Shown piece by piece: positions 6,202 to 30,476 of a stretch of DNA of 64,000 bases. This DNA comes from Candidatus Flemingiibacterium sp. GTDB taxonomy: Bacteria > Bacillota > Clostridia > Oscillospirales > CAG-272. The DNA is taken from contig JAZNAL010000053.1 of the NCBI GenBank assembly GCA_045586505.1, forward strand, positions 30,109 to 94,108. Reading direction: 5' to 3'. The notes beneath the pieces are model-generated. The model ran no database searches. It worked only from the letters and a program-made list of their open reading frames with translations, and had not been told where the DNA came from. The first letter of the stretch is position 1. Each line of letters starts with the position of its first letter. The position numbers and the translations under genes are program-made.

Positions 6202-6215
6202 CGCGGCACCCTCCT

Positions 6216-7625: not shown

Positions 7626-7698
7626 GAAAACCTCATAAAAACAATTATTTGGAATATAATAATAACAGTCTTTCAATAGCACATAATTATTCATTATA

Positions 7699-7859: not shown

Positions 7860-7947
7860 GCCGGAGTGGCGGAATTGGCAGACGCCCGGGACTTAAAATC
7901 CCGTGGGACTATATCCCGTACCGGTTCGAGCCCGGTTTCCGGCACCA
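7860..7947 (+). tRNA. tRNA-Leu (anticodon TAA), class II with a long variable arm and encoded CCA
   Basis: Acceptor GCCGGAG/TTCCGGC. Anticodon stem-loop CGGGA-CTTAAAA-TCCCG. T-loop GGTTCGAGCC. Ends in ACCA. Confidence 0.9.
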
Positions 7948-7961
7948 AAAACCTTATATAT

Positions 7962-8037
7962 CGCGCGGTAGAGCAGTTGGTAGCTCGTCGGGCTCATAAC
8001 CCGGAGGCCGCAGGTTCAAGTCCTGCCCGCGCAACCA
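7962..8037 (+). tRNA. Initiator tRNA-fMet (anticodon CAT)
   Basis: C1:A72 mismatch at the acceptor end (CGCGCGG...CCGCGCA). Three consecutive G-C pairs in the anticodon stem (TCGGG-CTCATAA-CCCGG). T-loop GGTTCAAGTCC. Encoded CCA. Confidence 0.85.
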
Positions 8038-14833: not shown

Positions 14834-14880
14834 GTTATCCCCCTTATATATTTATGTTATTTAATTATGGACAGAAATAT

Positions 14881-15004
14881 ACAAAAAAGACTTTTGTGAC
14901 GCTTCGCCACAAAAGTCTTGCCATCAAAAAAGATCCGCATAACCGGACTAAAAGTCGAGGTGACGGCTATCGGAAATGCAAAGCATTCAGCTACTCCCTT
15001 TTGT
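14881..15004 (-). promoter_or_regulatory. yybP-ykoY-like (Mn2+) riboswitch with terminator expression platform, in the ATPase leader
   Basis: The minus-strand leader reads ACAAAAGGGAGTAGCTGAATGC...GATGGCAAGACTTTTGTGGCGAAGCGTCACAAAAGTCTTTTTT. It has the GGGAGUAGC 5' motif and GCAAGAC 3' motif typical of this class. The 5' ACAAAAG can pair with CTTTTGT. That CTTTTGT is also part of the 5' arm of the terminator AGACTTTTGTG/CACAAAAGTCT plus U6, so the two structures are mutually exclusive (ON-switch logic). Confidence 0.6.
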
Positions 15005-15013
15005 AATACAATT

Positions 15014-15042
15014 ATTATATCATACAAATAAAAGCTTGTCAA
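15014..15042 (-). promoter_or_regulatory. Sigma-A-type promoter for the riboswitch/ATPase transcript
   Basis: The minus strand reads TTGACA, then 17 nt, then TGaTATAAT, ending about 10 nt before the aptamer 5' end. Confidence 0.6.
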
Positions 15043-15122
15043 TACTTTTTTAGATTTTCACAGATTATGAGAGATTATTTAAATAAAAAACAATAGGGCA
15101 GTATTTTCACTTATTTCAATTA

Positions 15123-15151
15123 TTGATAAATATCATCCTATTTGTTAATAT
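15123..15151 (+). promoter_or_regulatory. Candidate promoter for the pel supra-operon
   Basis: TTGATA, then 17 nt, then TGtTAATAT in the AT-rich 400-nt intergenic region. It lies about 95 nt upstream of pelD. Confidence 0.3.
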
Positions 15152-15249
15152 GTAATTAACATTTTGATGATAAAATTATCAATATAATAGGCGTTTTATA
15201 CTCTGCCGATGGTATTTGCAATTAATAGGGTGGTAAGGAGATGTTGACA

Positions 15250-18036
15250 ATGCAAGGTAAGCCGATTCTCATTGATTATTCGGAAAACGATTTGCACAAG
15301 TTAAAAATTGAATACGTTTCCGATGATGCCCTTGATAATGTGCTGAATGGAGAGCACGGCTATCACATTTATCATGTAAGAATGCTCACGGAATTTCTCC
15401 TTCGAGAGTTAAATTCGTACAAGCTCGAGAACACTCTTTCCGAAGAAGATATAGTCGCCATAGCGATGGCATCCGCGCTGCACGATATAGGTAAACTGCA
15501 AGTCCCTCAAAGTATCCTCAATTATCCGGGAACATTGTCTGCAGTTGAATACGATATAATTAAAAAACACTATGTGTTCGGCGAGCAGACAAACCGTGAA
15601 GCTGATTGCGGGGACATCTCTCCCAAAACGGTGGAGTATGCCGCGCAAATTGCCAGATACCACCATGAGCGCATTGACGGCACCGGATATCCCGAGGGAC
15701 TTCGAGGTGACGCCATTCCGCTGTGCGCGCAGGTCGTCGCCCTTGCGGATTCCTACGATGCGCTCACAAGCTCTCGCAGCTATAAGGAGGCATTTTCTCA
15801 GGACGTCGCGCTTCAGATGATTTCAAGCGGAATGTGCGGCGTTTTTGACGCGGGACTCGTTGAATGTCTTATGCGAGTGGTTAATCACCGCACATTGGTC
15901 ACCTTCAGAGAAAATCTACAGAAAAAACGCAGTGTTGTCGGGGAGTACAGCGATATCCGCTTAAAGCGAGTCCTGCTTATCGGAAATACCGAATACCTTA
16001 CCGAGGAGTTTGTTCATACAACCTTCCCGCAAAGTAAGGTCATGGTGGTGGGAAATACAGATCTCGGCGGCTCAGATCGAATAAAGCTCTTCCGCGTGCG
16101 TAAACCGTCTGTCAAGTCTATTCTTGAAACCTACGAATTTGACCTCATCGTCTTCTTCTCGACGGGACTGAAATTCCACTCTACCGATCAAAACGATGCA
16201 GAGGAGCTTCGTGAAGTCCTGCAGTTCTCCGCAGAGATGCAGAAAGGAATCAAAATTCTTTATCTTTCGCCACTCGATTCCTCGTTCAGCGAGCGAACTG
16301 ACAAAGCTATAATGGCATCCGCTAACGAAAAGCTTTGCGAGTTTTACGCAAAGCGCTATTCGCTCGATATTAAAACCGTACAGATTCCGTATCTATACAG
16401 TGCCCTATATAAAGGCGATTTCCTTTACGATGTGTTCGAGCAGGTATATTCGGGCAAAACTGTGTGTATTCCGGAAGCGTCCACTGCAAGGATGCATTTC
16501 CTCTCTCTCTTTGATTTGTCGGATCTGCTTATCCGTATCGTTGATAACTGGAAAGCAGGCAGCGGAGTTCTAAGCGTTGGCGATGAATTTCACCTCACTT
16601 TCGCTGATTTTGCCGAGAGGCTTAAAACAATCGCTCCGGGTGTAACGACGGAATTTACCGAGAGTCATACCGCCGGCATTACCAAAACCACTAACATGGC
16701 TCTGAGAAACGAGTACGGTTGGTTTGCGAAAATATCCGTTCTCGAGGATCTCGAGGATCAGTACGCGCTCTACCTTAACGCAAAAAAGGACGAAACAGAA
16801 ACATTATTTGACGCAATCAGGAGATGGCTTTCAAAGCATTCCTTTGCCATAAAGATCATAGAGCTGTTTCTGCTGTTTTTCCTGTCTGAACTGTTTATAC
16901 ATATAACCGACTCCGCCGTTATCTTTTCCATCGTTGATTTCAGAACGATCTTTATCGTGATCATGGCAACGCTGTATGGCTTGTCCTTCGGTATCGCCGC
17001 ATCGGCACTTGCCAGCGTTTCATATTTCATCGCAAAGGTCATGGCGGGAACAGATCCGTTGACCATATTTTACGAGCCCACAAATTGGCTTGCATTTGTG
17101 TTCTTTTTCCTGGTGGGTGGGCTTTGCGGCTACGTCAATCTGAAAAAAGAGGAGCACGGCAAATACCTCGAGGAGCAGAACAAACTGTTAGAAAACAAGC
17201 TTATCTTCACCGGAGAGATATACGAGGATACCCTTCGTGAGAAAAAGGACCTCAAAAAGCAGATCATCAGCTCAAAGGACAGCTTTGGCAAGATTTTCGA
17301 CATCACTCGAAAGCTAAACACCGTTGCTCCACAGCAGCTCTATCTTCGTACAATAGAAACATTTGAGGAGATACTCGAAAACAAGAGCATCGCGGTGTAT
17401 TCCGTAAACTCAAAGAACGCTTTCGGACGCCTTGAAGTTGCCTCCAGAGATCTTCTTGACATTGCCGCACGCTCCGTTTCTCTGCAGACCTACGCTCCTG
17501 TTGTCGAACAGCTTCGTGAGGGCGGTATATGGAAAAACACCGAGCTTAAAAGCGAATATCCCATGTATGCGGCAGGAGTTTGCCGCGGTGATGAGCTTGT
17601 GCTTATGATATTCCTGTGGCATGCGGATATGGGACAGCGCTCGCTTTACTACGTGAACCTTTTCAAGATTTTGCGTGACCTCGTACAGATGTCTCTTCTT
17701 CGCGCTTACGACTACGGCAATGCACTTATTGAAAAGCAGTATATCTCGGGTACACACATAATGAACGCCGAGAACTTTGAGGAGTGCGTACAGAATTTTG
17801 CCGCACTGGCGGAAAAGAAGGTGTCAACCTTCGTTGTGCTGGAATTTGACCTTAACGGTCACTCCCTGAAAGAAGCAAACGATATGCTTACGGGTAAGAT
17901 AAGGCTTAACGATATTCTTGGAATCACAAACGACGGCAAACTGCGCCTCATTCTCTCTCAGGCAACCGAAAAAGACATCCAGTTTATTTTGCCGCGATTT
18001 GAGGAGCTTGATATTACTGTCACCGTCGTGAAATAA
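15250..18036 (+). CDS. pelD: PelD-like c-di-GMP receptor (degenerate SDR, 4 TM helices, GAF, degenerate GGDEF with I-site) fused to an N-terminal HD-GYP phosphodiesterase domain
   Basis: The track start 15241 abuts the RBS, while ATG 15250 has 9-nt spacing from AAGGAG. HD-GYP motifs are intact: HDIGK (15481), KKH, HHERIDGTGYPEGL (15685) and ADSYDAL. The SDR-like region lacks the Gly motif (VLLIGNTEYL). TM block around aa 540-640. The C-terminal domain has RLND (17902) five residues before NDGKL, which occupies the GGDEF position. Confidence 0.85.
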   Translation: MQGKPILIDYSENDLHKLKIEYVSDDALDNVLNGEHGYHIYHVRMLTEFLLRELNSYKLENTLSEEDIVAIAMASALHDIGKLQVPQSILNYPGTLSAVEYDIIKKHYVFGEQTNREADCGDISPKTVEYAAQIARYHHERIDGTGYPEGLRGDAIPLCAQVVALADSYDALTSSRSYKEAFSQDVALQMISSGMCGVFDAGLVECLMRVVNHRTLVTFRENLQKKRSVVGEYSDIRLKRVLLIGNTEYLTEEFVHTTFPQSKVMVVGNTDLGGSDRIKLFRVRKPSVKSILETYEFDLIVFFSTGLKFHSTDQNDAEELREVLQFSAEMQKGIKILYLSPLDSSFSERTDKAIMASANEKLCEFYAKRYSLDIKTVQIPYLYSALYKGDFLYDVFEQVYSGKTVCIPEASTARMHFLSLFDLSDLLIRIVDNWKAGSGVLSVGDEFHLTFADFAERLKTIAPGVTTEFTESHTAGITKTTNMALRNEYGWFAKISVLEDLEDQYALYLNAKKDETETLFDAIRRWLSKHSFAIKIIELFLLFFLSELFIHITDSAVIFSIVDFRTIFIVIMATLYGLSFGIAASALASVSYFIAKVMAGTDPLTIFYEPTNWLAFVFFFLVGGLCGYVNLKKEEHGKYLEEQNKLLENKLIFTGEIYEDTLREKKDLKKQIISSKDSFGKIFDITRKLNTVAPQQLYLRTIETFEEILENKSIAVYSVNSKNAFGRLEVASRDLLDIAARSVSLQTYAPVVEQLREGGIWKNTELKSEYPMYAAGVCRGDELVLMIFLWHADMGQRSLYYVNLFKILRDLVQMSLLRAYDYGNALIEKQYISGTHIMNAENFEECVQNFAALAEKKVSTFVVLEFDLNGHSLKEANDMLTGKIRLNDILGITNDGKLRLILSQATEKDIQFILPRFEELDITVTVVK

Positions 18037-18048
18037 GAAAGGCGATAT

Positions 18049-18927
18049 ATGCTTTATATCATAGCTGCAGCCATGCATCTTCTTGTATGCCTGCTTGTGT
18101 TTATCGGAATTAAAACCGGATTGCTTTCGGTACATAAATATATGTTTTTCGTGGCGCTGTTGCTTCCGCTTTGGGGAGTGCTGATCGTGCTCATCCTGCA
18201 TTTTCAGATAGCATTTGATGCCACCGATTCTGCTGAGATCGGAGTCGAAAAATTAAAGCTCGAATCCGAGCTTTACAAAAGTGTTACCGTAGACGAAAAG
18301 AAAGCTGACACAGCGGTTCCCATCGAAGAGGCTCTGCTTATCAACTCGGCGAGAGAACGCCGCTCAATCATAATGGATGTTCTTAACGATAACCCCGGCG
18401 ACTACGTGGAATTCCTGCAAAAAGCAGGAAACAATGACGATACCGAGGTTGTACACTACGCCGTAACCGCAATGGTGGAGATATCCAAGGAAAACGACTA
18501 TATGCTTCAAAAGCTGGATGCGGAGCACGCCGCCAATCCGGACGATATAGGTATTCTTTCAAACTACATAGATTTTTTATGGAGTTGCCTCACTCAGAAC
18601 CTTATGCAAGGTCAGGTGGAGGTTATGAACCGCGAGCTTTTCGCACAGCTCATGAACAAAAAAATAGCCGCAGACGGGAATATCAACGATTACTCACGCC
18701 TTGCTGAAAATGAGCTGAAGCGCAAAAACTACGATACCGCAGGGGAAGTTATAGATAGAATTGGCGAAAAATGGCCGGATGCGGAGGAATATATCCTGCT
18801 TAGGATACAGTATCTCGCATCCCTTGGCAGAGGACATGAGATACAGGACTTCGTCAAAGAAACCGAAAACAGTCACACTTATATGTCATCAAAAACGAAG
18901 GAGGCGCTTGCGTTTTGGGCGAGCTGA
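18049..18927 (+). CDS. pelE: PelE-like protein (two N-terminal TM helices and a helical-repeat domain)
   Basis: Called from its position between pelD and pelA. N-terminal hydrophobic helices (MHLLVCLLVFIGIKTGLL, FFVALLLPLWGVLIVLILHF) are followed by an alpha-helical TPR-like region. There is no diagnostic motif, so the call is mainly by synteny. Confidence 0.6.
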   Translation: MLYIIAAAMHLLVCLLVFIGIKTGLLSVHKYMFFVALLLPLWGVLIVLILHFQIAFDATDSAEIGVEKLKLESELYKSVTVDEKKADTAVPIEEALLINSARERRSIIMDVLNDNPGDYVEFLQKAGNNDDTEVVHYAVTAMVEISKENDYMLQKLDAEHAANPDDIGILSNYIDFLWSCLTQNLMQGQVEVMNRELFAQLMNKKIAADGNINDYSRLAENELKRKNYDTAGEVIDRIGEKWPDAEEYILLRIQYLASLGRGHEIQDFVKETENSHTYMSSKTKEALAFWAS

Positions 18928-20771
18928 TAAACGGCATTCGCAGATTCAGCTTTAGGGGAATACTCGTTATCCTACTGGTGTTTTCGCTCATTTCGGCGGT
19001 TCTCCTCGTGGAGCTGAGCGGAATACGGGCAAACCGTTATGACAGAAAACTTGAACTAATGCCGCAGGATAAGATAGTCACAAAGGATGTTGCCTGTGAC
19101 TCTTTAGATAAAAACGCACTTTTATTGCACCATAGCGGCGATGAATCCTCGTGCACAGCGTATGAGCAGTTTACTGTAATCCTTGCCGACATGAAGGTCG
19201 GGTATGCTTCGGTAGACCTTGCACAGGATATACTGCCACCCTTTGACGGATTTGCGCAGGTCATCGTACTTTTGTCCGATCTTACTCCTCTTGGACAGTC
19301 GGTTGCCGATCTTTGCGACTTTGTACATGACGGTGGTGCCGCATGGTTTCCGCTGGTGCTTGAAACCAACGTATATTCCTCCGCGATCTCACAGATAATC
19401 GGAATTGACGATCTTTCGCCCGACTACTATACGGTAGAGAGCATTTATCCCGGAGAGGAGTTTATGATAGGCGGAGGACGTGCGTTTGCCGTTCCCGATC
19501 CCTTTGAATCCTCGCTTACTGTTGTACTCTCGGATGATGCAAAGGTGTATGCCAGCGCAGATGGCCCCGACGGTGTGCCGCTTGTTTGGAAAAAAGAGTA
19601 CGGAAGCGGTGTTTTTGTAGTGGACAATATCGGTATTTACGACAAAGCGATGCGCGGATTTTATGCGGCATCTTATAGCTTGCTTTCGGATGTGTGCGTG
19701 TATCCTGTTATCAACTCGTCCACGTTTTATCTTGACGACTTTCCCTCGCAGATACCGAGCGGCAACAGTGAATACATACAGCGCGACTATCACACGACCA
19801 TCCGTGATTTCTACATAAACATCTGGTGGCCGGACATGATGAATTTCGCCGACGAATACGGCTTAAAATATACCGGACTTGCCATCGAATCCTATGACAA
19901 TAACGTTGACGGAACAGCAGATGCTGCACCCGACACGGGTACATTCCTTAATTTTGGAAATATGCTCCTGCGAAAAGGCGGCGAGCTTGGATACCACGGT
20001 TATAACCATCAGCCGCTCGTTTTGTCGAACAGAGATTACAAGGATCATTACGACTACAAAACCTGGCAGTCTGAGTCCGCAATGAAGGCGGCGTTTGACG
20101 AGCTTATCGAGCTTTGCGACACACTTTTCCCCGATGCTGAGTTTTCGCTGTACGTTCCGCCCTCAAACCTTTTGTCAGACGAGGGCAGACAGTTTTTGAT
20201 AAAGGAATATCCGCACATAAAAACCATTTCCGGAATTTATTTTGAGGATATTGCTGATGCGGAGCTTGATTTTGGATGTATGCAGGAGTTTTCGGTGGAT
20301 GAAAACGGCATCGTCGATCAGCCGCGCGTTATATCCGGTTTTATTTTGGATGACTTCCAAAATTTAGCCGCTGTATCTGAGCTGAATCTGCATTTTATAA
20401 ACAGCCATTTTACCCACCCCGATGATGCGCTTGACCCCGAGCGTGGTGCGGAGCTTGGCTGGGGTGAGATGAAGCGACGTTTTGATGTTTTTCTGTCGTG
20501 GCTCTATGAATCAGCGCCGGGGCTTCGTAATCTTACCGGCACCGAGGCGTCTGCTGCTGTACAGCGATATGCGGCAGTGGCGCCGAAAACAGAGTATACC
20601 GATAGCGGCGTGAAAATAACTATTGGCAATTTCTGCGACGAGGCACAGTTTCTCGTCCGATTTAACGAAAAATCACCGGAAAGTGTTACCGGTGGTGAAC
20701 TCACCCATCTGACGGGTGGTCTTTATCTGCTTCGTGCAACAGCGGATACCGTTGACATTACACTTAAATAG
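18915..20771 (+). CDS. pelA: PelA-like polysaccharide deacetylase of the Gram-positive type (DUF2194-like)
   Basis: TTG start 10 nt after AAGGAGG, with a 13-nt overlap with pelE. N-terminal TM anchor. GGELGYHGYNHQPL deacetylase-type His motif. Position matches the pelDEA(DA)FG order. Confidence 0.75.
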   Translation: MGELINGIRRFSFRGILVILLVFSLISAVLLVELSGIRANRYDRKLELMPQDKIVTKDVACDSLDKNALLLHHSGDESSCTAYEQFTVILADMKVGYASVDLAQDILPPFDGFAQVIVLLSDLTPLGQSVADLCDFVHDGGAAWFPLVLETNVYSSAISQIIGIDDLSPDYYTVESIYPGEEFMIGGGRAFAVPDPFESSLTVVLSDDAKVYASADGPDGVPLVWKKEYGSGVFVVDNIGIYDKAMRGFYAASYSLLSDVCVYPVINSSTFYLDDFPSQIPSGNSEYIQRDYHTTIRDFYINIWWPDMMNFADEYGLKYTGLAIESYDNNVDGTADAAPDTGTFLNFGNMLLRKGGELGYHGYNHQPLVLSNRDYKDHYDYKTWQSESAMKAAFDELIELCDTLFPDAEFSLYVPPSNLLSDEGRQFLIKEYPHIKTISGIYFEDIADAELDFGCMQEFSVDENGIVDQPRVISGFILDDFQNLAAVSELNLHFINSHFTHPDDALDPERGAELGWGEMKRRFDVFLSWLYESAPGLRNLTGTEASAAVQRYAAVAPKTEYTDSGVKITIGNFCDEAQFLVRFNEKSPESVTGGELTHLTGGLYLLRATADTVDITLK

Positions 20772-20780: not shown

Positions 20781-22211
20781 GTGAGGATCTGTTTGGTTTT
20801 GGAAGGATGCTATCCGTTTATCAACGGCGGCGTTTCCACTTGGATGCATCAATACATAAACGAAATGCCCGAGCATGAGTTTGTGCTGTGGGTTATCGGC
20901 GCGAAAGCCGAGGATAGGGACAAGTTTGTCTACACCTTGCCCGATAATGTAGTAGAGGTTGAGCAAGTGTTTCTCGATGATGCTCTGCGTGTTAAAGATA
21001 CGGGCATATTCAATCATCGCTTCACAGACGATGAAAAGGAAGCACTCAGACGTCTTGTATCTTCCGATAAACCAAACTGGGATTTGCTTTTTGAGATGTA
21101 TCAGGTACGACGTATCAATCCTATGTCCTATCTGAAAAGCGAAAGCTTTCTTGAAACGCTCACCGAGACCTGCCGTCGTGAGTTTCCGTTTACTGCGTTT
21201 TCCGATACATTTCATTCGGTGCGCTCACGCCTTTTGCCCGTGCTTTACCTGATGGGTTCAAGGATCCCGCAGGCGGACTGTTATCACGCCATCTGCACGG
21301 GATACGGAGGACTTCTCGCTTCAATGGCGGCTTATATAACCAAAAAGCCCATGCTCCTTACCGAGCACGGTATCTACACAAGAGAACGCGAAGAGGAGAT
21401 CATCCGCGCAAAATGGGTAGCGAGAGCTTTTAAGCCTCACTGGATAGATTTCTTTTATATGCTCTCCGATCTTACATACGAGCGCGCGTTTCGCGTAACA
21501 TCTCTTTTCACCCGTGCCATGCATACCCAGATCGATATGGGATGCGATGCCACAAAATGCAGGGTTATCGAAAACGGCATCAGCTATGAGCGGCTTTGTG
21601 ATATTCCTCTTAAAGAGGACGACGGCATGGTGGATATCGGTGCGGTCGTGCGTCTTGCGCCTATCAAGGATATCAAAACTATGATATATGCCTTTTTCGA
21701 GCTTTGCGCCAGACGTGACAACGTGCGCCTTCATATTATGGGAGGCGTTGACGATCAGGAATACGCTGACGAATGCTATGCGCTCGTAAAACAGCTCGGA
21801 CTTGAGGATAAGATCATTTTCACGGGACGAGTTAACATCATCGAATATTTTGAAAAGCTGGATTTCACTTTGCTTACAAGCATTTCCGAGGGACAGCCGC
21901 TGTCCGTGCTTGAATCCTTTGCCGCAAGACGTCCTGCGGTAACAACGGATGTCGGCTGCTGCAGCGAGCTTCTTAACGGAGGGCCCGGGGACACGCTGGG
22001 CAAGGCGGGATATTTCGCTCCTCCTATGCAGCGTTCAAAGCTTGCTGACGCCATGGAGCCGCTTTGTGAATCAAGAGAGCTTCGTCTTAAGATGGGCGAG
22101 ATTGGTCAGAAGCGCGTATACGAAAATTTCAGATACATTATTATGCTCACGAAATACCGTGATCTTTACAAAGAGGTGGAAAAGGAATGGCCGGAATTGG
22201 CTTCGAACTAA
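20781..22211 (+). CDS. pelF: PelF-like GT4 glycosyltransferase
   Basis: GTG start after AGGAG. N-terminus RICLVLEGCYPFINGGVSTW is the PelF/DUF3492 signature. The C-terminal GT1/GT4 fold has SISEGQPLSVLESFAARRP. Confidence 0.9.
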   Translation: MRICLVLEGCYPFINGGVSTWMHQYINEMPEHEFVLWVIGAKAEDRDKFVYTLPDNVVEVEQVFLDDALRVKDTGIFNHRFTDDEKEALRRLVSSDKPNWDLLFEMYQVRRINPMSYLKSESFLETLTETCRREFPFTAFSDTFHSVRSRLLPVLYLMGSRIPQADCYHAICTGYGGLLASMAAYITKKPMLLTEHGIYTREREEEIIRAKWVARAFKPHWIDFFYMLSDLTYERAFRVTSLFTRAMHTQIDMGCDATKCRVIENGISYERLCDIPLKEDDGMVDIGAVVRLAPIKDIKTMIYAFFELCARRDNVRLHIMGGVDDQEYADECYALVKQLGLEDKIIFTGRVNIIEYFEKLDFTLLTSISEGQPLSVLESFAARRPAVTTDVGCCSELLNGGPGDTLGKAGYFAPPMQRSKLADAMEPLCESRELRLKMGEIGQKRVYENFRYIIMLTKYRDLYKEVEKEWPELASN

Positions 22212-23644
22212 AAAAGCTTTTTGCAAAAAAAGGCGTGCTGAATTCCGCCAAAGCATACGGCTACGCGGCGGTAATATGCACAGGACCTATGCTTCTCGGC
22301 GTTTTATTGCTGCTTGGTATAATGGCGCTCTGCACCTTTTTCGAAGTTGGACTACCCACCAGGGAACTGCTTATATGTATGATCACCTACACTCTCCTCG
22401 CGTCGGTCACGGTATCTTCCTTCTTTTCGATGGTGGTAACAAGATACGTGGCGGATATGCTCTTTGAAGAAAAAAATCAAGCGGTTCTGCCCGCATTTTG
22501 GGGTTCTACCGTTATTATGTTGGGAATCGGCGGTATTCTGTACGGTGTTTTTCTCGTTTTTTCAGGAGCAACGCTTCTTCAGGGAATACTTTGCTTCACA
22601 CTTTTTGGTGAGCTTATTATCGTATGGAACGCCATGAGCTTTCTGTCGGCGATCAAGGACTATAAGGGAATATTCCTATCATTTCTTGCGTCTGTTGCGG
22701 TAAGCATACTCCTGGGTGCATTTCTCTTGTGGCTGAAGCTTCCCATTATCGAATCGCTTCTGTTCTCGGTGAGTGTCGGATACGGAGTTATGCTTATATG
22801 GGACGTTATTCTGCTTCACCGCTATTTTCCCCATACAACGCTCGGGGCTTTCACCTTCCTTAAATGGATAGATGCCTTTCTGCCGCTTGCCCTCTCGGGA
22901 TTTTTTATGAACATCGGTATGTTTTCGCATCTTGTGATAATGTGGTTTTCAGATATCGGAGTCAGGGTACACGGCTTATTTTACGGTGCGCCGTGGTACG
23001 ACGTTCCCGCACTGCTTGCGTTCATGACCGCACTTATGACTACCGTCAATTTCGTAGTGTCGGTTGAAGTAAACTTTTACCCCAAATACCGCAATCATTA
23101 CAGCCTTTATAACGACAAGGGCACCATCGACAACATAAAGCAAGCCGAAAAGGAAATGATCGGCACGTTGAAAACCGAGCTGTTCTATACGGCACTCAAG
23201 CAGCTTTTGTTCACCGCAGCCGTTATTGCACTGGGCGGATATCTTCTAGATCTGCTTCCGCTGGGATTTAACGAGGTCATGCGTGGATATTTCCGTACCC
23301 TTTGTGTGGGATACGGCGTTTATGCCATCGGAAATATGCTTATGCTTATATTACTCTATTTTACGGATTATAAGGGCGCACTTATCACAACAGCAGTCTT
23401 TGCCGCGGCGACAGTTGGTTTTTCGGTGTTATCGCTGTTATTTTCGAATATCTACTACGGCTTCGGCTTTTTGATCGCTGCTATGATATTTGCCGCCGTA
23501 TGCGCCGTAAGGCTTGATTATTTTACAAAACGGCTTCCGTACTATATTCTGTCGGTTCAGCCCCTTGTATCAGAGGACCGGTCCGGAATGTTTACAAGAC
23601 TCGGAGTATTTCTTAGTGATAAGCTGGAGGAAACAAAAAAATGA
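22187..23644 (+). CDS. pelG: PelG-like polytopic exopolysaccharide export protein
   Basis: N-terminus MAGIGFELKKLFAKKGVLNSAKAYGYAAVICTGPM is the PelG signature. About 12 TM helices. 25-nt overlap with pelF. Confidence 0.9.
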   Translation: MAGIGFELKKLFAKKGVLNSAKAYGYAAVICTGPMLLGVLLLLGIMALCTFFEVGLPTRELLICMITYTLLASVTVSSFFSMVVTRYVADMLFEEKNQAVLPAFWGSTVIMLGIGGILYGVFLVFSGATLLQGILCFTLFGELIIVWNAMSFLSAIKDYKGIFLSFLASVAVSILLGAFLLWLKLPIIESLLFSVSVGYGVMLIWDVILLHRYFPHTTLGAFTFLKWIDAFLPLALSGFFMNIGMFSHLVIMWFSDIGVRVHGLFYGAPWYDVPALLAFMTALMTTVNFVVSVEVNFYPKYRNHYSLYNDKGTIDNIKQAEKEMIGTLKTELFYTALKQLLFTAAVIALGGYLLDLLPLGFNEVMRGYFRTLCVGYGVYAIGNMLMLILLYFTDYKGALITTAVFAAATVGFSVLSLLFSNIYYGFGFLIAAMIFAAVCAVRLDYFTKRLPYYILSVQPLVSEDRSGMFTRLGVFLSDKLEETKK

Positions 23645-25404
23645 GAAAAAAGATTTTATCCGCCGCATGCCTGCTTTTGACAGCTATCATGTGTATACCC
23701 GGATGCGATGACACATTTGATTCAGCTGTGAACTCAAACCTCGGCACGACTATTGATAAATCCGAAATACAGACAGAAGAAAACATTCACATACGTGATA
23801 AAGATCTCTTGTATGAACAGCAGAATAATACCGAAATCGTAACGATGTATCTCACTGTTTCCGTGGGCAATTCCGCCGAGAATACCGATCACACATGGGA
23901 GGAAATAAACACCTATTCGGCTTACGATTATGAAGAAATGGGTGTAGAGCGGTATAAAATCGCCGGACTTATTCAGGTAGGCGACGAAAACGGACTGATC
24001 CCAGGTGAGCTTGGCTACGGTCAGGTCGCACCCAACTGCACGGTGCAGATACGCGGTCAGTCTTCCAGCCGAAACGTGCAGAAAAACTATAAAATCAGCA
24101 TCAAAGACAACAAGGGTGACTGGCGTGGGCAGCAGACAATAGCACTCAACAAGCATCAAGGCGACGGTCTTCGCTTTCGCAACAAGCTCGGATTTGATCT
24201 TCTCACGGACATCGACCAGCTGATGAGTCTTCGCACAACCTTTGTACGCCTTTATGTGAAGGATCTGACCTCGGGAGCCGACGCGAAATTCGAGGATTAC
24301 GGAATCTATACGCAGGTTGAACAGCTTAACAAGACTGCTCTCGAGCGTCACGGACTTGACAAGAAAGGGCATCTTTACAAGATCAACTTCTGCGAGTTTT
24401 ACCGTTATGAGGACACGATAGTTGCAAAGGACGATCCAAGATACGATACCACAAAGTTTGAAGAGATACTCGAGATCAAGGGCGATGACGATCACACGAA
24501 GCTTATACGTTTGCTTGATCGCATCAACGACTATTCAATCCCCATAGAAACCATACTTGAAGAGGATTTTGACATCGAAAACGTGGCATATTGGATGGCA
24601 TTTCAGCTGCTCGTCGGAAATGTTGACACCCAGAGCCGAAACTTCTATATGTACAGCGCACAGAACGATAACCGTTGGTACATACTCTCCTGGGACCTTG
24701 ACGGCTCCTTCAAACGGACGGAATACGAGCTTCTCGGACGAAACGACTACAGCGAGTGGGAATCCGGAGTTAGTAACTATTGGGGCAATGTCTTATTCCA
24801 AAGATGCCTGAAATCGGAAACGTTCCGTGGTGTGCTCACTGCAGCAGTGGATGATATTTATGCCAAGCTCTGTGACGGACGTGTGGAGGAATATGCAAAA
24901 GCTTATGCCGATCTTCTGAAGCCGCTGGTTTTCACCGGACGTGATGCTCGCTATATGCCGGTTACAGCCCCGCAGTATGATATTATCGCATCCGCACTCG
25001 TTGATGAAATTAAGGATAACTACCAAAGACTCAAGGATTCATTTGGCAAGCCTATGCCGTTCTACATAGGTGTTCCGGAAAACAGCGCTCAAAAGCTGAG
25101 TGTAATATGGGAAGCGTCGTACACCTTCGATGCCGAGGCTATCTCATACAGCTTTGAGCTTGCGCGTGACTACACCTTTGAAAATCCCATAGTAAAGCTT
25201 GATAACCTCACAATCCCTATGGCGGAGTTTGACGGTCTGTCAGAGGGACAGTATTTCATTCGCGTAAAAGCCTATGACGCCGGCGGTCAGTCACAGACGG
25301 CGTTTGATTCCTATATAACCGACAGCGGTAAGGTATACGGCACAAAATGCTTCTATGTTGACGCACGCGGCAATGTCGTGGAGGATGTTTATGTCGAAGA
25401 CTGA
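23641..25404 (+). CDS. CotH-family atypical kinase, predicted lipoprotein, with a C-terminal Fn3-like domain
   Basis: ATGA overlap with the pelG stop. Lipobox MCIPGC. CotH-type motifs NKLGFDLL, GHLYK and SRNFYMYSAQNDNRWYILSWDLDGSF. Confidence 0.85.
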   Translation: MRKKILSAACLLLTAIMCIPGCDDTFDSAVNSNLGTTIDKSEIQTEENIHIRDKDLLYEQQNNTEIVTMYLTVSVGNSAENTDHTWEEINTYSAYDYEEMGVERYKIAGLIQVGDENGLIPGELGYGQVAPNCTVQIRGQSSSRNVQKNYKISIKDNKGDWRGQQTIALNKHQGDGLRFRNKLGFDLLTDIDQLMSLRTTFVRLYVKDLTSGADAKFEDYGIYTQVEQLNKTALERHGLDKKGHLYKINFCEFYRYEDTIVAKDDPRYDTTKFEEILEIKGDDDHTKLIRLLDRINDYSIPIETILEEDFDIENVAYWMAFQLLVGNVDTQSRNFYMYSAQNDNRWYILSWDLDGSFKRTEYELLGRNDYSEWESGVSNYWGNVLFQRCLKSETFRGVLTAAVDDIYAKLCDGRVEEYAKAYADLLKPLVFTGRDARYMPVTAPQYDIIASALVDEIKDNYQRLKDSFGKPMPFYIGVPENSAQKLSVIWEASYTFDAEAISYSFELARDYTFENPIVKLDNLTIPMAEFDGLSEGQYFIRVKAYDAGGQSQTAFDSYITDSGKVYGTKCFYVDARGNVVEDVYVED

Positions 25405-26113
25405 ACGCTACCGTCACGAGTGGAAGTATCTTATTGATACCGCGCAGAAGGAGCTTATCTGCAAGCGTCTGTCACCCTTTCTCGAGCTTGACAAGCACGC
25501 AAAGGCAGGCGGTTACATGATACGGAGTCTGTATTTTGATGATTACTTCAACACCGCGTACGAGGAAAAGGATGCGGGTGTGCTTGAACGAAAAAAATAC
25601 CGTATACGCATCTACAACTGCTCGGACAGCAGTATAAAGCTTGAGCGAAAAAAGAAATTCGGCGCCTACATCTTCAAGGAGTCGGCAACGCTCACGAGGG
25701 ACGAGGTCTACAAAATTCTCGACGGCGACTACGAATTTTTGCTGCACAGCAAATATCCGCTTTGCCGTGAATTCTATGTGGAAAGTGTCAGTAACGTAAT
25801 GCGTCCGCGCACTATCGTTGACTATGACCGCGAGCCGTGGATTTTGGATGCCGGAACGGTGCGCATCACTTTTGATATGGACGTACGTGCCGCTGTGGGA
25901 AGCTTTGATATTTTCGACGACACGCTTCCCGCACTTTCCGTGCTTGAGCCGGGCAAGTGTGTAATGGAGGTAAAATACACCGAATTTCTGCCGAAGTTTG
26001 TGCGCGACATTTTACCGGACAGGGCATCCGAGTTTACAGCAGTGTCGAAATATGTGCTTTGCTATGAGAAGTCAGAGTATATGCGAAGCTTTAAATATTG
26101 GTATGAAAATTAA
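25391..26113 (+). CDS. VTC-domain (polyphosphate-polymerase-like triphosphate tunnel) protein, cytoplasmic
   Basis: The track ORF starts at 25355. ATG 25391 follows GGAGGA and overlaps the cotH stop by 14 nt. Tunnel-strand motifs RHEWKYLI, IRSLYFDD, KYRIRIY, IKLERKKK, VRITFDMD and VMEVKY. Confidence 0.8.
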   Translation: MSKTERYRHEWKYLIDTAQKELICKRLSPFLELDKHAKAGGYMIRSLYFDDYFNTAYEEKDAGVLERKKYRIRIYNCSDSSIKLERKKKFGAYIFKESATLTRDEVYKILDGDYEFLLHSKYPLCREFYVESVSNVMRPRTIVDYDREPWILDAGTVRITFDMDVRAAVGSFDIFDDTLPALSVLEPGKCVMEVKYTEFLPKFVRDILPDRASEFTAVSKYVLCYEKSEYMRSFKYWYEN

Positions 26114-26127
26114 TATGGAGGATGACT

Positions 26128-26799
26128 ATGAGTGTACAGGACTTTATAAAAAAATCAATTCTTGAGTCAGGCGCATTTGACGGCGTAACCGTGGCGAATG
26201 CCGCTCTCGGACTCCTAATCGCTCTTATCATGGGTGCCGTGATATATTTTGTGTATAGAAGATTTTATACGGGTGTTATTTATTCACGTTCATTTGCTAT
26301 AACGCTTGTAGGTATGACGGTGCTGACCGCGATGGTTACTCTTGCTATAAGTACAAACATCGTAATCTCCCTGGGTATGGTCGGTGCGCTGTCTATCGTA
26401 CGCTTCCGTACCGCCATCAAGGATCCGCTTGACCTGCTATATCTCTTCTGGGCTATTACAACGGGAATCACCGCGGGTGCAGGAATGTATGCGCTCGTTG
26501 CAGTAGCGGCACTTGTTATGACACTTATGATAATTCTATTTTATCATAAGCAGCAGAAGGGACGTATCTACATACTTGTTGTTCACTATACCGGCGATAC
26601 GGCAGGAGATAATGTGATCCGTGCATTTGGTAAAATGAAGTATTTCATTAAATCCAAAACCGCAAGAAAAGAAAAAACTGAAATGGCAATCGAAGTATTT
26701 TGCAAAAATAACGATACGTTCTTTATGGATAAGATCCGCGCGATTGACGATGTTGAGGATGCAACATTAATTCAATATAACGGAGAGTATCATGGATAA
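26128..26799 (+). CDS. DUF4956-family integral membrane protein
   Basis: ATG 26128 lies 6 nt after GGAGGA (alternative 26122). Four TM helices. Contains the signature LGMVGALSIVRFRTAIKDPLDLLYLFWAI. Soluble C-terminal tail. Confidence 0.8.
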   Translation: MSVQDFIKKSILESGAFDGVTVANAALGLLIALIMGAVIYFVYRRFYTGVIYSRSFAITLVGMTVLTAMVTLAISTNIVISLGMVGALSIVRFRTAIKDPLDLLYLFWAITTGITAGAGMYALVAVAALVMTLMIILFYHKQQKGRIYILVVHYTGDTAGDNVIRAFGKMKYFIKSKTARKEKTEMAIEVFCKNNDTFFMDKIRAIDDVEDATLIQYNGEYHG

Positions 26800-28882
26800 A
26801 ATATTAAACGGAGTAAAAGACTTCGCCACAATCAAACGATACCTTGAAGCGATCAATCAGACGACGGATGATTTTCTGTTTGTATATGATATAAAAAACA
26901 ACCAGAATCATTTTTTTGGCTATATAAATGATGTCTTTGACTTATGTAGTGCTAACAAAGACACCGTCACCTCTGAAGAACTGCTTACCATAGTGCATCC
27001 GGCGGACAGGAAAACGGTTACACGGGAATTCGGGGAAATATGCAAAGGCATTAAGGATTCTCACGACCTTAATTTCCGTATGTTCAATAAGCGCGGTGAA
27101 ACCGTTTGGGTCAACTCAAGGGGAAAGATCCTCCACGATGAAAACGGTACTCCCACACTTGTGCTCGGACGTTTGTCAGAGGAGGCTTTGCGTCATCTTT
27201 TCAATCCTCTTACAGGACTGTGGAATAAAACAAAATTGCGTGATGATCTAAAAAACAGGCTTGAGCTCGGTGCCGGATGGCTTATGATGCTTGAAATTCC
27301 AATGCTGGCGGACATCAACTTAAGCCACGGAAGAAGCTTCGGCAACCAGTTGCTCTGCGATGTTGCGGATATTCTCGAGGAGATTGACAAAGTAGAAGGA
27401 TCTTATCATATTGACCACAATAATTTTGCCATCATTCTTGAAGATACATCCCAAATGACAGTGGAAGCAATCTATCGGAAAATCAGTGATACACTTCAGG
27501 ATAAGTGCAGTCTTTTTGCCGGCGTTGTGCCGATAGACACAAGTGTTTTCATTGATGTGTCACAGCTTGTTGACTGTGCAAACATCACGCTGAAAAAAGC
27601 AAACGAAAATCCTATCGGTGGAATTGAGTTCTTCTCCGCCGAGGAGGTTCAGCAAAGAATCACCTCGCTGATGCTTCTCGAAGAAATGAAGGAAAGCGTA
27701 CAGAACGGATTTGAAGGCTTCGAGGTGTACTATCAGCCGCAGATAAAAAGCGGGAACTACGAGCTTCACGGCGTTGAGGCACTGCTTCGCTATGACTCCC
27801 CCAAACGTGGTAGGGTGTTCCCGGACGAGTTTATTCCGCTGCTTGAGCAGTCGGGACTTATTGAGCCGGTTGGTATGTGGGTGCTTGAAACAGCGCTTGC
27901 ACAGTGCAAAAAGTGGCGGGAGAGCATCCCGACACTTCATGTGGCGGTGAACTTTTCCTCCGTTCAGTTTGAGGATCGCCGGCTTGGTGAGAAGATTGTG
28001 GATGCGCTTAAGAGCGCAGAGCTTCCCGGGAATGTACTCACTGTGGAGCTTACTGAATCTGTTCAGCTTAGCGGCAATAAGCATTACTACAACCTCATCA
28101 AATATATAAAGTCGTACGGAGTACGTTTTTCCATCGACGACTTCGGTACAGGCTATTCAAATCTCGGCTATCTGAAGCAGCTTGACGTAAGCGAAATCAA
28201 AATTGACCGAAGCTTCGTGTCCGAGATCGAAAAAAATACCTACAATTACCGACTTATCAGTAACGTAATTGAATTTGCGAAAACCAACTCAATATATGCG
28301 TGCTGTGAGGGTGTCGAAACGGCAAAAGAGCTTTCAATACTTGAGCCACTTCAAGCTGATTTCTTCCAGGGATATCTCTTTGACAAGCCCTGCACTGCCG
28401 ATGAGATCGCACGAAAGTACATTTACAAATCCTCCGATGAGTACAAGGCGCGAATGGCGGCTATCGAGGAGATAGCCCGTTTTAAAGAGCAATTCGGAAC
28501 GATACACTTCGATCCTAAAAACGTCCTTCGTGCAAACGATATCGGACTGTGGATCATTCGGATTGACGAGAAAAATAACCGACGCGAACTGCACGTTGAT
28601 GATGTAATGGAGCGCGTTCTGGGACTTAAGGAAAAGGTATCTCCGAGTGAGTGTTACGACTATTGGTACAGCCGCATTTCTCACGAGGACAAGCAATATG
28701 TGGATAACTCCGTGAACGTGATGATAAATGGCGGAAAGGCAGTACAGCTGGGCTATCGTTGGAATCATCCGGATGTCGGTCAAGTGACCGTACGCAGCAG
28801 CGGAATACGAACACAGGATGAAAGTGGTAAGATAGTGCTTGAAGGATATCATCGTATACTTACCGGAGTTGAAGGCGCATAA
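26792..28882 (+). CDS. PAS, degenerate GGDEF, EAL and PAS domains: c-di-GMP phosphodiesterase
   Basis: 8-nt overlap with the upstream stop. The GGDEF position reads DHNNF, which is degenerate. EAL motifs are intact: EALLRY, ELTES, DDFGTGYSNLGYL, KIDRSF, EGVET and QGYLF. Confidence 0.9.
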   Translation: MDKILNGVKDFATIKRYLEAINQTTDDFLFVYDIKNNQNHFFGYINDVFDLCSANKDTVTSEELLTIVHPADRKTVTREFGEICKGIKDSHDLNFRMFNKRGETVWVNSRGKILHDENGTPTLVLGRLSEEALRHLFNPLTGLWNKTKLRDDLKNRLELGAGWLMMLEIPMLADINLSHGRSFGNQLLCDVADILEEIDKVEGSYHIDHNNFAIILEDTSQMTVEAIYRKISDTLQDKCSLFAGVVPIDTSVFIDVSQLVDCANITLKKANENPIGGIEFFSAEEVQQRITSLMLLEEMKESVQNGFEGFEVYYQPQIKSGNYELHGVEALLRYDSPKRGRVFPDEFIPLLEQSGLIEPVGMWVLETALAQCKKWRESIPTLHVAVNFSSVQFEDRRLGEKIVDALKSAELPGNVLTVELTESVQLSGNKHYYNLIKYIKSYGVRFSIDDFGTGYSNLGYLKQLDVSEIKIDRSFVSEIEKNTYNYRLISNVIEFAKTNSIYACCEGVETAKELSILEPLQADFFQGYLFDKPCTADEIARKYIYKSSDEYKARMAAIEEIARFKEQFGTIHFDPKNVLRANDIGLWIIRIDEKNNRRELHVDDVMERVLGLKEKVSPSECYDYWYSRISHEDKQYVDNSVNVMINGGKAVQLGYRWNHPDVGQVTVRSSGIRTQDESGKIVLEGYHRILTGVEGA

Positions 28883-28919
28883 ACTCGCAATAAATCAAGC
28901 AATACCAAGGAGCAAAAAA

Positions 28920-30476
28920 ATGAGGACTATTCAAAGCAAAATACTGTTAGTTGTAATTTCCGCGCTTATTGTGATTACTGCGATAGTAACCTCCATCGCA
29001 GTCGGTGTAACGCATAATATCATGCATAAGGATGCGGACAGAATTTTAAACAATGTTTCCGAGAAGGAAGCCGCATATATCAATGATATGCTGAACGATT
29101 TTATGCAGTCGTCGGCAATTATGGAGCACTACGCACTACATGAGCTTAGCAGTGTGAGTGCGCTGAATAATGAATCCTACCGTGACGAATATATAGAGGA
29201 AATATGCCACCTTTTTGACGAGGTTGCACTTAATACCGCCGGAACAACCGCATATTATCTCTGCTTCTCACCCGAGGTGACGGGTGGTGTTACTTCCGGA
29301 TTTTACTCAAAATTCAAAGAGGATGGCGTGTACGAGCTTTCAAAAGAGGAGTTTGCGGAGCTTGACCTTTTTAATGCGAACTTTATTAAGGAAAGCGGAT
29401 TTGACGTGATTGGATCCGGCAACATATGGCTGCAGCCCCGAAGGAGTACCTTTGCCCCCGACGATACGGTTGTCTCCTACCTTACGCCACTATACAAGGA
29501 AAATACCTTTTTAGGATTCCTCGGCTTCAACATGGATTTTGAGTACCTGCTGGGTCTGGTAGGCGAAATAACTGTTTACGATAACGGTCATGCTTTACTG
29601 CTGAGCAGCGACAAGCAGACCTGCTACAACCCTGCTGAGGATATCCATATTTCGCAGGATTACGCCGAGGCTACAACAGCTCTTAAAAACGGGATGAACC
29701 TGGAGCTGCGTGCAGCATATGTGGACATCCAAAGCGGCATACGTCCAATGCTGAGCTATATAATCGGCGCCTTTTTGGTGGTACTTGTGCTTGCGATTTT
29801 GTATACCTTCTTTGTAACGGACAAGATCGTTACGCCGCTTAAAAAGCTCACTTCCGCGGCAGGCAGCATCTCATCAGGTGTACAGGACGTGAATCTCATT
29901 GTCGATTCAAATGATGAGATTGGCATACTCTCCCGTGTACTCAGCGACACTTATGGAAAAATTCGAGAGTATTCCACATATATAAACGCTCTTGCATACA
30001 GAGATTCGCTGACGGGCATCAAGAACAGCACGGCGTACGCTGAGGCAATTGATGAGCTCAACAAGGAGATCAATCTCGGCAACCCATCTTTCGGCGTAAT
30101 TGTTGCAGACATAAACAATTTGAAGAAGACAAATGACACCTACGGACACGATGTTGGAAACGAGCTTATCGTTCATTCCGCAAGAATACTCACCGATATA
30201 TTCAAAACAAGCGCTGTATACCGAATAGGCGGTGATGAATTTGCTATTGTTTTAAAAGGAAAGGATCTTGAGCGGCACCGCGTTCTCATTGAAAAAATGG
30301 ATGTTGCGTTCTCTGCCGATTACATAGCGGTAAACGATGAAACCGTACCGGTTTCAATAGCACGAGGAGTTTCTGTATTCGATCCGTCAATCGACCGTGT
30401 ATATGCAGACGTATTTGCTAAGGCAGACCACGCTATGTACTTGAACAAGGAAGATATGAAGGTTGCTTGTGAGTAA
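28920..30476 (+). CDS. Membrane sensor diguanylate cyclase (extracytoplasmic Cache-like domain, HAMP, GGDEF)
   Basis: The track ORF starts at 28839. ATG 28920 lies 7 nt after AAGGAG and gives MRTIQSKILLVVISALIVITAIV (TM1). Second TM helix MLSYIIGAFLVVLVLAILYTFFV. HAMP-like segment. Intact RIGGDEFAIV, and no RxxD I-site upstream of it. Confidence 0.9.
   Translation: MRTIQSKILLVVISALIVITAIVTSIAVGVTHNIMHKDADRILNNVSEKEAAYINDMLNDFMQSSAIMEHYALHELSSVSALNNESYRDEYIEEICHLFDEVALNTAGTTAYYLCFSPEVTGGVTSGFYSKFKEDGVYELSKEEFAELDLFNANFIKESGFDVIGSGNIWLQPRRSTFAPDDTVVSYLTPLYKENTFLGFLGFNMDFEYLLGLVGEITVYDNGHALLLSSDKQTCYNPAEDIHISQDYAEATTALKNGMNLELRAAYVDIQSGIRPMLSYIIGAFLVVLVLAILYTFFVTDKIVTPLKKLTSAAGSISSGVQDVNLIVDSNDEIGILSRVLSDTYGKIREYSTYINALAYRDSLTGIKNSTAYAEAIDELNKEINLGNPSFGVIVADINNLKKTNDTYGHDVGNELIVHSARILTDIFKTSAVYRIGGDEFAIVLKGKDLERHRVLIEKMDVAFSADYIAVNDETVPVSIARGVSVFDPSIDRVYADVFAKADHAMYLNKEDMKVACE

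Follow-up and report, generated by a model that had tools for sequence, protein, structure and literature searches.

An HD-GYP domain fused to a Class III PelD at the head of a gut clostridial pel operon: a possible local c-di-GMP sink

Why would a receptor for cyclic di-GMP (c-di-GMP) carry, in the same polypeptide, a domain of the type that hydrolyses this messenger? The question is raised by one gene in a 64,000-nucleotide stretch of DNA from Candidatus Flemingiibacterium sp. (GenBank assembly GCA_045586505.1, contig JAZNAL010000053.1, positions 30,109 to 94,108 of the forward strand), hereafter the window, whose own numbering is used throughout. The gene stands first in an operon for the exopolysaccharide Pel and encodes an HD-GYP domain, of the kind found in c-di-GMP phosphodiesterases (PDEs), fused to PelD, the c-di-GMP receptor subunit of the Pel synthase complex. 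How bacteria draw specific outputs from a single diffusible messenger is still a central question of c-di-GMP signalling, and the current answer is 'local' modules, where an effector has a cyclase or a PDE docked on it. The HD-GYP::PelD fusion may be such a module: our preferred reading, to which we give a probability of about 0.6, is that at the Pel synthase it provides a local, hard-wired sink or threshold for c-di-GMP.

The fusion gene is a 931-codon open reading frame (ORF) in which direct reading finds no internal stop (coordinates of all features are collected in the table). From the N- to the C-terminus, its product comprises an HD-GYP domain, a degenerate domain of the short-chain dehydrogenase/reductase (SDR) type, four transmembrane (TM) helices, a coiled coil, a GAF domain and a minimal degenerate GGDEF domain with an RxxD I-site. 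An initial annotation of this DNA had proposed one ORF of 931 amino acids (aa) with five parts, which is indeed uninterrupted and whose parts are backed here by Pfam, profile and fold evidence. The motifs HDIGK (from 15481, where the annotation had placed it), KKH, HHERIDGTGYPEGL (the HD-GYP signature), ADSYDAL and VLLIGNTEYL can all be read in the ORF. The signature, HHERIDGTGYP, has its first nucleotide at 15661; position 15685, to which it had been assigned, is where its GYP part begins. The true start of the gene is likely ATG 15250, giving a protein of 928 aa, because a Shine–Dalgarno sequence (AAGGAG) lies 9 nucleotides upstream of this codon and abuts ATG 15241 with zero spacing, and because homologues of the fusion protein are 928 aa long with MQG as their first residues. 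When the whole protein is searched against Pfam and NCBIfam, the HD-GYP part alone is recognised, with no PelD_GGDEF, GAF or epimerase match above threshold; the PelD identity was therefore drawn from context, family homology and fold.

Within aa 41–196, Pfam detects HD_5 (E = 3e-24) and HD (E = 2e-14), and the top NCBIfam match is an HD-GYP response-regulator model (NosR family, E = 1e-24). The closest PDB sequences found by phmmer are the HD-GYP enzymes PA4781 (4r8z), V-cGAP3 (5z7c) and PmGH (4mcw), with E from 1e-27 to 4e-26, and the N-terminal part of the full-length AlphaFold2 (AF2) model superposes on 4r8z with a template-modelling score (TM-score) of 0.72 and also matches the 4mcw fold. 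Residues of PmGH, whose roles are taken from PMC4159591, were mapped by sequence alignment to the PDB chain (chain numbering equals PmGH numbering plus 6). This mapping shows that (i) the metal ligands H189, H221, D222, H250, H276, H277 and D305 correspond to H42, H81, D82, H110, H141, H142 and D170; (ii) K225, a second-shell and putative catalytic residue, corresponds to K85; (iii) D308, a conserved residue that supports the metal centre, to D173; (iv) G284-Y285-P286, the GYP motif, to G149-Y150-P151; (v) I294, which is conserved and implicated in c-di-GMP recognition, to I159; and (vi) the substrate ligands R314 and K317 to R179 and K182. An eighth metal ligand of PmGH, E185, defines a trinuclear 'E/D-T-G' subgroup (PMC4159591), and its counterpart by spacing and motif is E38 (E-H-G-Y-H here, E-S-G-x-H in most orthologs). 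HMMER alignments of the loop before H42 to PmGH, including one with a short query, always begin at H42, so that the equivalences of E38 with E185 and of N36 with D183 rest on spacing, motif and tblastn matches running from N36.

The HD-GYP domain is covered by 64 orthologs and the I-site region by 66. Residues E38, H42, H81, D82, K85, H110, H141, H142, D173, R179 and K182 and the GYP motif are kept in 64/64, and D170 in 63/64, with D170Y as the single exception. The initial annotation had made its claim depend on metal ligands being present in a proper alignment, and the eight ligands of PmGH all have counterparts (seven by alignment, E38 by spacing), each kept in 63–64 of the 64. Its broader statement that every HD-GYP signature is intact holds for the metal and substrate ligands, GYP and K85, and fails at the position of PmGH D183, which is Asn36. 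Among the orthologs the domain is as well conserved as the remainder of the protein (mean identity 71%; SDR 62%, GGDEF-like domain 64%), and a rough estimate of the ratio of nonsynonymous to synonymous substitution rates (dN/dS ∼0.08) indicates purifying selection. Because all metal and substrate ligands are kept and selection is purifying, it is reasonable, from the sequence, to regard the domain as apparently active, with Asn36 as a caveat.

The rest of the protein, aa 243–931, is a 'Class III' Gram-positive PelD. A 51-member family profile searched against the PDB finds extended SDRs (threonine dehydrogenase, UDP-GlcNAc 4-epimerase and NDP-sugar epimerases, with E down to 3.5e-15), and Foldseek matches the AF2 model to SDR folds with TM-scores of ∼0.6–0.7. 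As annotated initially from VLLIGNTEYL, the glycine motif is lost: GxxGxxG is replaced by G248-N-T-x-Y252, and the YxxxK positions read K355 and A359 in an indirect mapping by profile consensus alignment. A degenerate SDR has been published for 'extended' PelDs (PMC7112168, PMC7890745). The annotated 4-TM block is seen in the AF2 model as four hydrophobic helices, with a weak DUF4118 match (E = 0.084, below the Pfam cut-off). Because the number of TM helices between them is even (four), the HD-GYP domain and the receptor domain with its I-site are predicted to share the cytoplasmic side. The coiled-coil segment that follows, aa 635–680, is the most conserved part of the protein (78% mean identity).

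A separate model of aa 676–931, built from a 24-sequence diverse alignment, was needed because the fold search with the full-length model is swamped by SDR enzymes. This 256-aa model is a confident two-domain structure, with a predicted local distance difference test score (pLDDT) of 89 and a predicted TM-score (pTM) of 0.85. In the PDB, Foldseek matches it best, over ∼285 columns, to the GAF-GGDEF cyclase Dcsbis and to six Pseudomonas aeruginosa PelD entries that are among the top 15 (4dn0, 4etz, 4eu0, 4etx, 4dmz and 4euv; E 1e-7 to 2e-5), in agreement with the GAF-like and degenerate GGDEF regions first annotated there. Isolated GAF domains match the model with TM-scores of 0.58–0.68; the low global TM-score (∼0.35) against P. 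aeruginosa PelD reflects a differing angle between the two domains. The 51-sequence profile gives weak GGDEF matches (6khu and 7e6g, E ∼0.01–0.02), and the PelD chains in the PDB were found neither by phmmer nor by this profile.

The I-site geometry described initially is borne out by direct reading: RLND is followed by ILGIT and then by NDGKL, a gap of five residues. RLND precedes the strand that leads into the NDGKL hairpin, which is the I-site position of diguanylate cyclases. Further downstream, R919, a candidate second Arg for binding c-di-GMP, is the equivalent of Bacillus cereus R395 and P. aeruginosa R402, with a spacing of +31 compared with +32 in B. cereus (PMC7112168). R888, D891 and R919 are kept in 66/66 orthologs; in 51 diverse long PelDs (23–39% identity), D891 and R919 are among only nine invariant columns and R888 is kept in at least 90%. 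I-site binding by PelD is required for Pel in both P. aeruginosa and B. cereus (PMC7112168).

Gene context points the same way. The fusion gene is the first of a pelD-pelE-pelA(DA)-pelF-pelG-cotH-VTC-DUF4956 operon in which gene ends overlap or nearly abut; Pfam matches of the downstream ORFs and synteny thus uphold the initial placement of the protein at the Pel synthase. Whitfield et al. reported the pelDEA(DA)FG core together with the same accessory set from operons of clostridia and streptococci whose PelD is of the SDR type (PMC7112168). In related loci, a pelE-like gene adjoins pelD wherever there is enough flank, and the gene order from pelD to DUF4956 is identical wherever the flank reaches.

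Two further genes of c-di-GMP metabolism lie behind this operon in the window. The product of one, with PAS, degenerate GGDEF and EAL domains, is by its motifs a probable second PDE of the locus; the gene follows DUF4956 in most loci of at least ∼59% identity with enough flank, and is absent there at 49–58%. The other, with dCache, HAMP and GGDEF domains, probably encodes a sensor diguanylate cyclase that could feed PelD. In several species, genes with a GGDEF motif also occur immediately upstream of the fusion gene on the same strand (L029 8123–9745, L038 2201–3340, L053 6404–8719 and L055 7421–9748) or two genes upstream of it (L033 5768–7522). Linkage of a cyclase to the fusion gene is recurrent, and its position is variable.

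We then considered how widespread the fusion is. A protein search returns more than 120 clusters (90% identity level) from many assemblies, 924–955 aa long, which match end to end at 60–100% identity; the most that databases call them is 'HD domain-containing protein'. When one genome of each bacterial species is scanned, 67 loci with the fusion are found, at identities from 93% down to 49%. Recurrence of the architecture on this scale is far more than chance would give. Almost all of the loci belong to metagenome-assembled genomes of gut origin, with sheep, goat, roe deer, buffalo, cattle and other animals as hosts, and are labelled as Ca. Flemingiibacterium, Fumia, Acutalibacteraceae, Oscillospiraceae or simply Clostridia. 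Each is a single continuous tblastn match which, down to 49% identity, spans both modules unless a contig end intervenes.

The PelD part is found far more broadly. A search with aa 230–931 against 1.84 billion cluster representatives gives 1104 matches, 404 of them below 1e-30. Among the best 150 of the 1104 (50% identity level), nearly all are ∼700 aa long and begin at the first SDR strand, and only P0121 (930 aa) and the fragment P0123 have the N-terminal extension of ∼227 aa. The HD-GYP extension is therefore clade-specific among the ∼700-aa 'Class III' PelDs. The nearest relative that lacks an HD-GYP (P0124, 40% identity) also belongs to a pel operon of this kind, around which there is no HD-GYP gene, and a fusion of a neighbouring HD-GYP gene was rejected on this ground. 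The closest HD-GYPs outside the family, at 46–49% identity, come from a plasmid collection (Subdoligranulum, Collinsella, Monoglobus and C. difficile records). On these results the fusion appears to stem from one acquisition event, at the base of a single clade of Clostridia. On one related 4.6-kb contig (L069, 224–2701; P0122, 714 aa, 57% identity), unrelated sequence replaces the HD-GYP domain and its last helix, ERLVDCLEKV, is retained. The likely cause is that the domain was lost secondarily or that the contig is chimeric, and not an ancestral state; P0122 was accordingly dropped as a natural HD-GYP-less member of the clade, since a last helix kept beside unrelated sequence is uninformative on ancestry.

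From the computed architecture, conservation, residue matches, folds and operon structure, we infer catalysis, substrate, ligand binding and an effect on Pel output as follows: (i) the dCache-HAMP-GGDEF sensor cyclase of the locus would make c-di-GMP, which would bind the RxxD I-site (R888/D891, with R919); (ii) with the I-site occupied, PelF and PelG would be licensed to polymerise Pel and export it, as happens in P. aeruginosa and B. cereus; (iii) the tethered HD-GYP domain, with the eight-ligand set of the PmGH-type trinuclear-iron class, would hydrolyse c-di-GMP beside the receptor; and (iv) PelD occupancy would then depend on sustained local synthesis and not on the global pool. Acting as a local sink, the HD-GYP domain would raise the activation threshold and give a fast shut-off of Pel when the cyclase signal stops.

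Several observations weigh against this reading. In 64/64 orthologs Asn36 stands where PmGH has D183, so that of the second-shell pair D183/K225 only the Lys is present, as K85. The Km of characterised HD-GYP enzymes is often well above the Kd of PelD; if this applies here, the domain might act only at high c-di-GMP. E38 is equated with E185 by spacing and motif (E-S/H-G-x-H compared with E-T-G-x-H) across a loop that precedes the HMMER alignments. The full-length AF2 model (mean pLDDT 70, pTM 0.41) has low inter-domain confidence, and the GGDEF-like domain is very short (∼96 aa). Finally, the Pfam PelD_GGDEF family (PF16963) gives no match at E ≤ 1; the same miss is reported for B. cereus PelD, itself proven by experiment (PMC7112168), so that membership in the class is not excluded by it.

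The Asn36 substitution invites the view that the HD-GYP domain is catalytically slow or dead, and serves as a second sensing site for c-di-GMP or pGpG or as a GYP docking module for a GGDEF protein, either PelD's own GGDEF-like domain or the cyclase encoded in the locus. A D183A mutant of PmGH is inactive (PMC4159591), inactive c-di-GMP domains that bind ligands or partners are well known according to an HD-GYP census (bioRxiv 10.1101/2021.11.05.467447), and the fusion gene repeatedly has a GGDEF gene linked to it. We nevertheless consider this view unlikely. The full set of eight metal ligands, K85, D173 and both substrate ligands exceeds what docking needs, and Asn could still form the hydrogen bond with Lys for which PmGH uses D183. 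Moreover, an R-N-G-E-S-G-x-H loop, in which Asn takes the place of D183, is common to the nearest HD-GYPs outside the family (Subdoligranulum, C. difficile and Collinsella); examples from Raoultella, Vibrio and Deinococcus have (R/K)-D-N/D-E/D-T-x-x-H. Because the nearest HD-GYP domains of other Firmicutes carry the same Asn, Asn36 is a trait of the subfamily that predates the fusion, and not a sign of decay after it.

Alternatively, an active HD-GYP domain could work on another nucleotide, clearing a product or competitor and not the ligand of PelD. The product of the EAL family is pGpG, and an EAL protein is encoded in the same locus; 3'3'-cGAMP is a further candidate, as the cGAMP-specific V-cGAP3 scores equal to the c-di-GMP enzymes (E = 3.6e-26) and sequence does not by itself separate these specificities. 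However, the c-di-GMP contacts R314, K317, Y285 and I294 of PmGH are all kept, the fused partner is a c-di-GMP receptor, and orthologs at 49–56% identity keep the HD-GYP domain without a downstream EAL gene, which makes this alternative rather improbable. We place at a similarly low level a self-resetting receptor, in which the scaffold of SDR, TM helices and coiled coil would couple I-site occupancy and HD-GYP turnover allosterically. If it were true, a local burst of c-di-GMP would switch Pel on for a limited time and then be erased by the receptor itself. Such a protein would be a second-messenger effector of the trigger-enzyme or timer type, and would give the first natural example of a PDE shielding its own effector against the global pool. 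Finally, an assembly, frameshift or gene-calling artefact that joins two genes, for which the absence of the HD-GYP part from contig L069 (P0122) might speak, has a vanishingly small likelihood. The 67 loci are independent and come from different studies and hosts, those with the whole gene (61 of >900 aa) are continuous with no stop between the modules, and the length of the inter-module linker is conserved. Assembly artefact, which the initial annotation had named as a way for its claim to fail, was rejected on these grounds, and a local sink or threshold remains our preferred reading.

Table. Positions and supporting evidence of the fusion gene, its domains and sites, and the genes downstream (positions are those of the window).
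Feature	Position	Strand	Basis
HD-GYP::PelD fusion gene	15241..18036	+	931-codon ORF read directly; full-length homologues
N-terminal ∼35 aa, predicted beta-hairpin, poorly conserved	15241..15345	+	AF2 strands 7–15 and 18–26; mean identity 30%
HD-GYP domain, aa 36–229	15346..15927	+	Pfam HD_5/HD; PDB 4r8z/5z7c/4mcw; fold TM-score 0.72 to 4r8z; residue conservation
HD-GYP key residues N36, E38, H42, H81-D82, K85, H110, H141-H142, G149-Y150-P151, D170, D173, R179, K182			
Degenerate extended-SDR/epimerase-like domain, aa 243–518	15967..16794	+	Family profile against PDB; Foldseek; direct reading
Four TM helices, aa ∼534–634, DUF4118-like	16840..17142	+	AF2 helices 534–555, 559–579, 581–601 and 613 onward
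Juxtamembrane long helix/coiled coil, aa 635–680	17143..17280	+	AF2 helix 613–677
GAF domain, aa 681–835	17281..17745	+	C-terminal model, pLDDT 89; GAF matches 3ci6 and 5w10, TM-score 0.64–0.68
Minimal degenerate GGDEF-like domain, aa 836–931, NDGKL replacing GGDEF	17746..18033	+	C-terminal model; fold matches
I-site R888-L-N-D891, five residues before NDGKL	17902..17913	+	Direct reading; conservation
R919, candidate second c-di-GMP-binding Arg	17995..17997	+	Invariance; spacing compared with B. cereus PelD
pelE-like gene, 292 aa, two N-terminal TM helices and helical repeat region, no Pfam match	18049..18927	+	Position and topology
pelA deacetylase-type gene (DUF2194/DUF2334)	18915..20771	+	Pfam
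pelF glycosyltransferase gene (DUF3492 and GT1)	20781..22211	+	Pfam
pelG	22187..23644	+	Pfam PelG, E = 1e-133
cotH, VTC (polyphosphate polymerase-like) and DUF4956 accessory genes	23641..26799	+	Pfam; syntenic
PAS-degenerate GGDEF (DHNNF)-EAL gene, EAL and DDFGTG intact	26792..28882	+	Pfam; motif reading
dCache-HAMP-GGDEF gene, GGDEF intact, no RxxD I-site	28839..30476	+	Directly after pel locus; start likely Met near 28920

Some features around the fusion gene are recorded here in their own right. The cotH, VTC and DUF4956 genes are contiguous with pelG, syntenic in all related loci and more conserved than pelD (VTC 79–95% identity). The PAS-degenerate GGDEF-EAL protein has ∼150 further C-terminal residues with no assigned domain. 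Neither a c-di-GMP riboswitch nor any other Rfam leader RNA matches in 14700–15400 at E ≤ 1, and the Rfam matches elsewhere in the window are tRNAs only. On the minus strand (14887–15042), a perfect match to a sigma-70-type promoter (TTGACA-17-TATAAT with TG, at 15042–15014) comes first and then a terminator-like hairpin of 15 bp that has a T-run (14919–14887, no Rfam family), both upstream of the start of a P-type ATPase gene at 14833; the promoter and hairpin look like a leader attenuator. An MBOAT gene adjoins an AlgX-like SGNH gene at 5104–7694 (−), on the strand opposite to the pel operon and 7.5 kb upstream of it; such pairs are of the kind that O-acetylates polysaccharides. Just after two tRNA genes (7860–8034), the segment 8226–11699 (+) encodes a protein of 1157 aa with CHB_HEX_C_1 and Fn3-associated domains, which is probably secreted or at the surface.

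TM, GAF, GGDEF and SDR are the only domains in the published PelD classes I–IV (PMC7890745; S2 Fig legend of PMC7112168), and a 2024 preprint on streptococcal Pel keeps the same classification (10.1101/2024.04.20.589940). The text of the HD-GYP census lists MASE9-HD-GYP-GAF-GGDEF enzymes and does not mention PelD or epimerase partners (bioRxiv 10.1101/2021.11.05.467447). A full-text literature search for PelD together with HD-GYP returned no description of the fusion, which is likewise absent from PMC7112168, PMC7890745 and the text of the census; the initial annotation had also been aware of none. As judged from its domains, HD-GYP::PelD is in effect a fifth PelD architecture, built wholly from known parts.

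Several consequences follow for future work. The covalent arrangement of PDE and effector is kept across at least ∼60 species-level lineages of animal-gut Clostridia, and point mutations of this one protein, from HD to AA and from RxxD to AxxA, should separate sink from sensor. Hundreds of proteins named only 'HD domain-containing protein' are flagged as Pel synthase subunits. This points to a c-di-GMP-controlled Pel biofilm in the little-studied Oscillospiraceae and Acutalibacteraceae of the rumen and hindgut.

We lastly compared the fusion with known systems. The Class III layout is degenerate SDR, DUF4118 TM, GAF and degenerate GGDEF (Whitfield et al. 2020, PMC7112168; Whitfield & Howell 2021, PMC7890745). 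Residues 243–931 align end to end with ∼700-aa members of this class (28–40% identity, E down to 1e-165), with which they share the lost GxxGxxG, the RxxD plus Arg, the pelDEA(DA)FG operon and cotH/VTC/DUF4956. By contrast, the ∼230-aa N-terminal HD-GYP addition occurs in none of the four published classes, and the operon tail consists of PAS-degenerate GGDEF-EAL and GGDEF cyclase genes instead of DUF4832; a comparable replacement by a dual cyclase/phosphodiesterase gene is described for bifidobacteria (PMC7112168). The PelDs of P. aeruginosa (4DN0, 4DMZ, 4ETX, 4EU0 and 4EUV) and B. cereus have the same GAF plus degenerate GGDEF fold and the same RxxD five residues before the GGDEF-equivalent turn, with a downstream Arg. 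They differ in sequence (∼11–13% identity) and in domain orientation in the model (TM-score ∼0.35, root-mean-square deviation ∼16 Å), and the protein described here has a shorter GGDEF-like domain and extra SDR and HD-GYP modules.

On the HD-GYP side, the eight metal ligands, K225, D308, GYP, I294 and R314/K317 of the PmGH/TM0186-type enzymes (PMC4159591) have counterparts here, with Asn at the D183 position and E-S/H-G for E-T-G as differences. HD-GYP domains are typically C-terminal outputs, as stated in the census (bioRxiv 10.1101/2021.11.05.467447), whereas this one is N-terminal with no sensor domain upstream. The HD-GYPs with an RNGESGxH loop from Subdoligranulum variabile, C. difficile ST632 and Collinsella (L070, L072 and L073, match 3001–3534 in each) align from Asn36 at 46–49% identity. 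The annotated ones (C. difficile and Collinsella) differ in being larger signalling proteins, a diguanylate cyclase or a phosphorelay-linked HD phosphohydrolase, and not PelDs; the C. difficile ST632 protein is plasmid-encoded and annotated as a diguanylate cyclase, and the Subdoligranulum record carries no annotation. The RNGESGxH-type HD-GYPs apparently form an uncharacterised Firmicutes subfamily.

As a system, a close parallel is DgcC/PdeK at the cellulose synthase of Escherichia coli, where a PDE likewise sits beside the c-di-GMP-binding part, a dedicated cyclase is present and the PDE gene is linked to the synthase operon (PMC7397504, PMC10211494). There, a separate EAL PDE is held by protein contacts and the receptor is a PilZ domain of the synthase; here, an HD-GYP domain belongs covalently to the receptor subunit itself. 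The concept of local PDE sinks at effectors is recognised, but according to a 2023 review those PDEs that would shield their effector against a high global pool 'remain to be unequivocally identified' (PMC10211494). With a PDE-type domain and the receptor in a single polypeptide and cyclase and EAL genes in the same locus, the components are co-located in the way that defines a local module. In Hengge's scheme of local signalling (PMC10211494, PMC7397504), the fusion would correspond to the 'local sink', which our preferred reading takes to have been made covalent.

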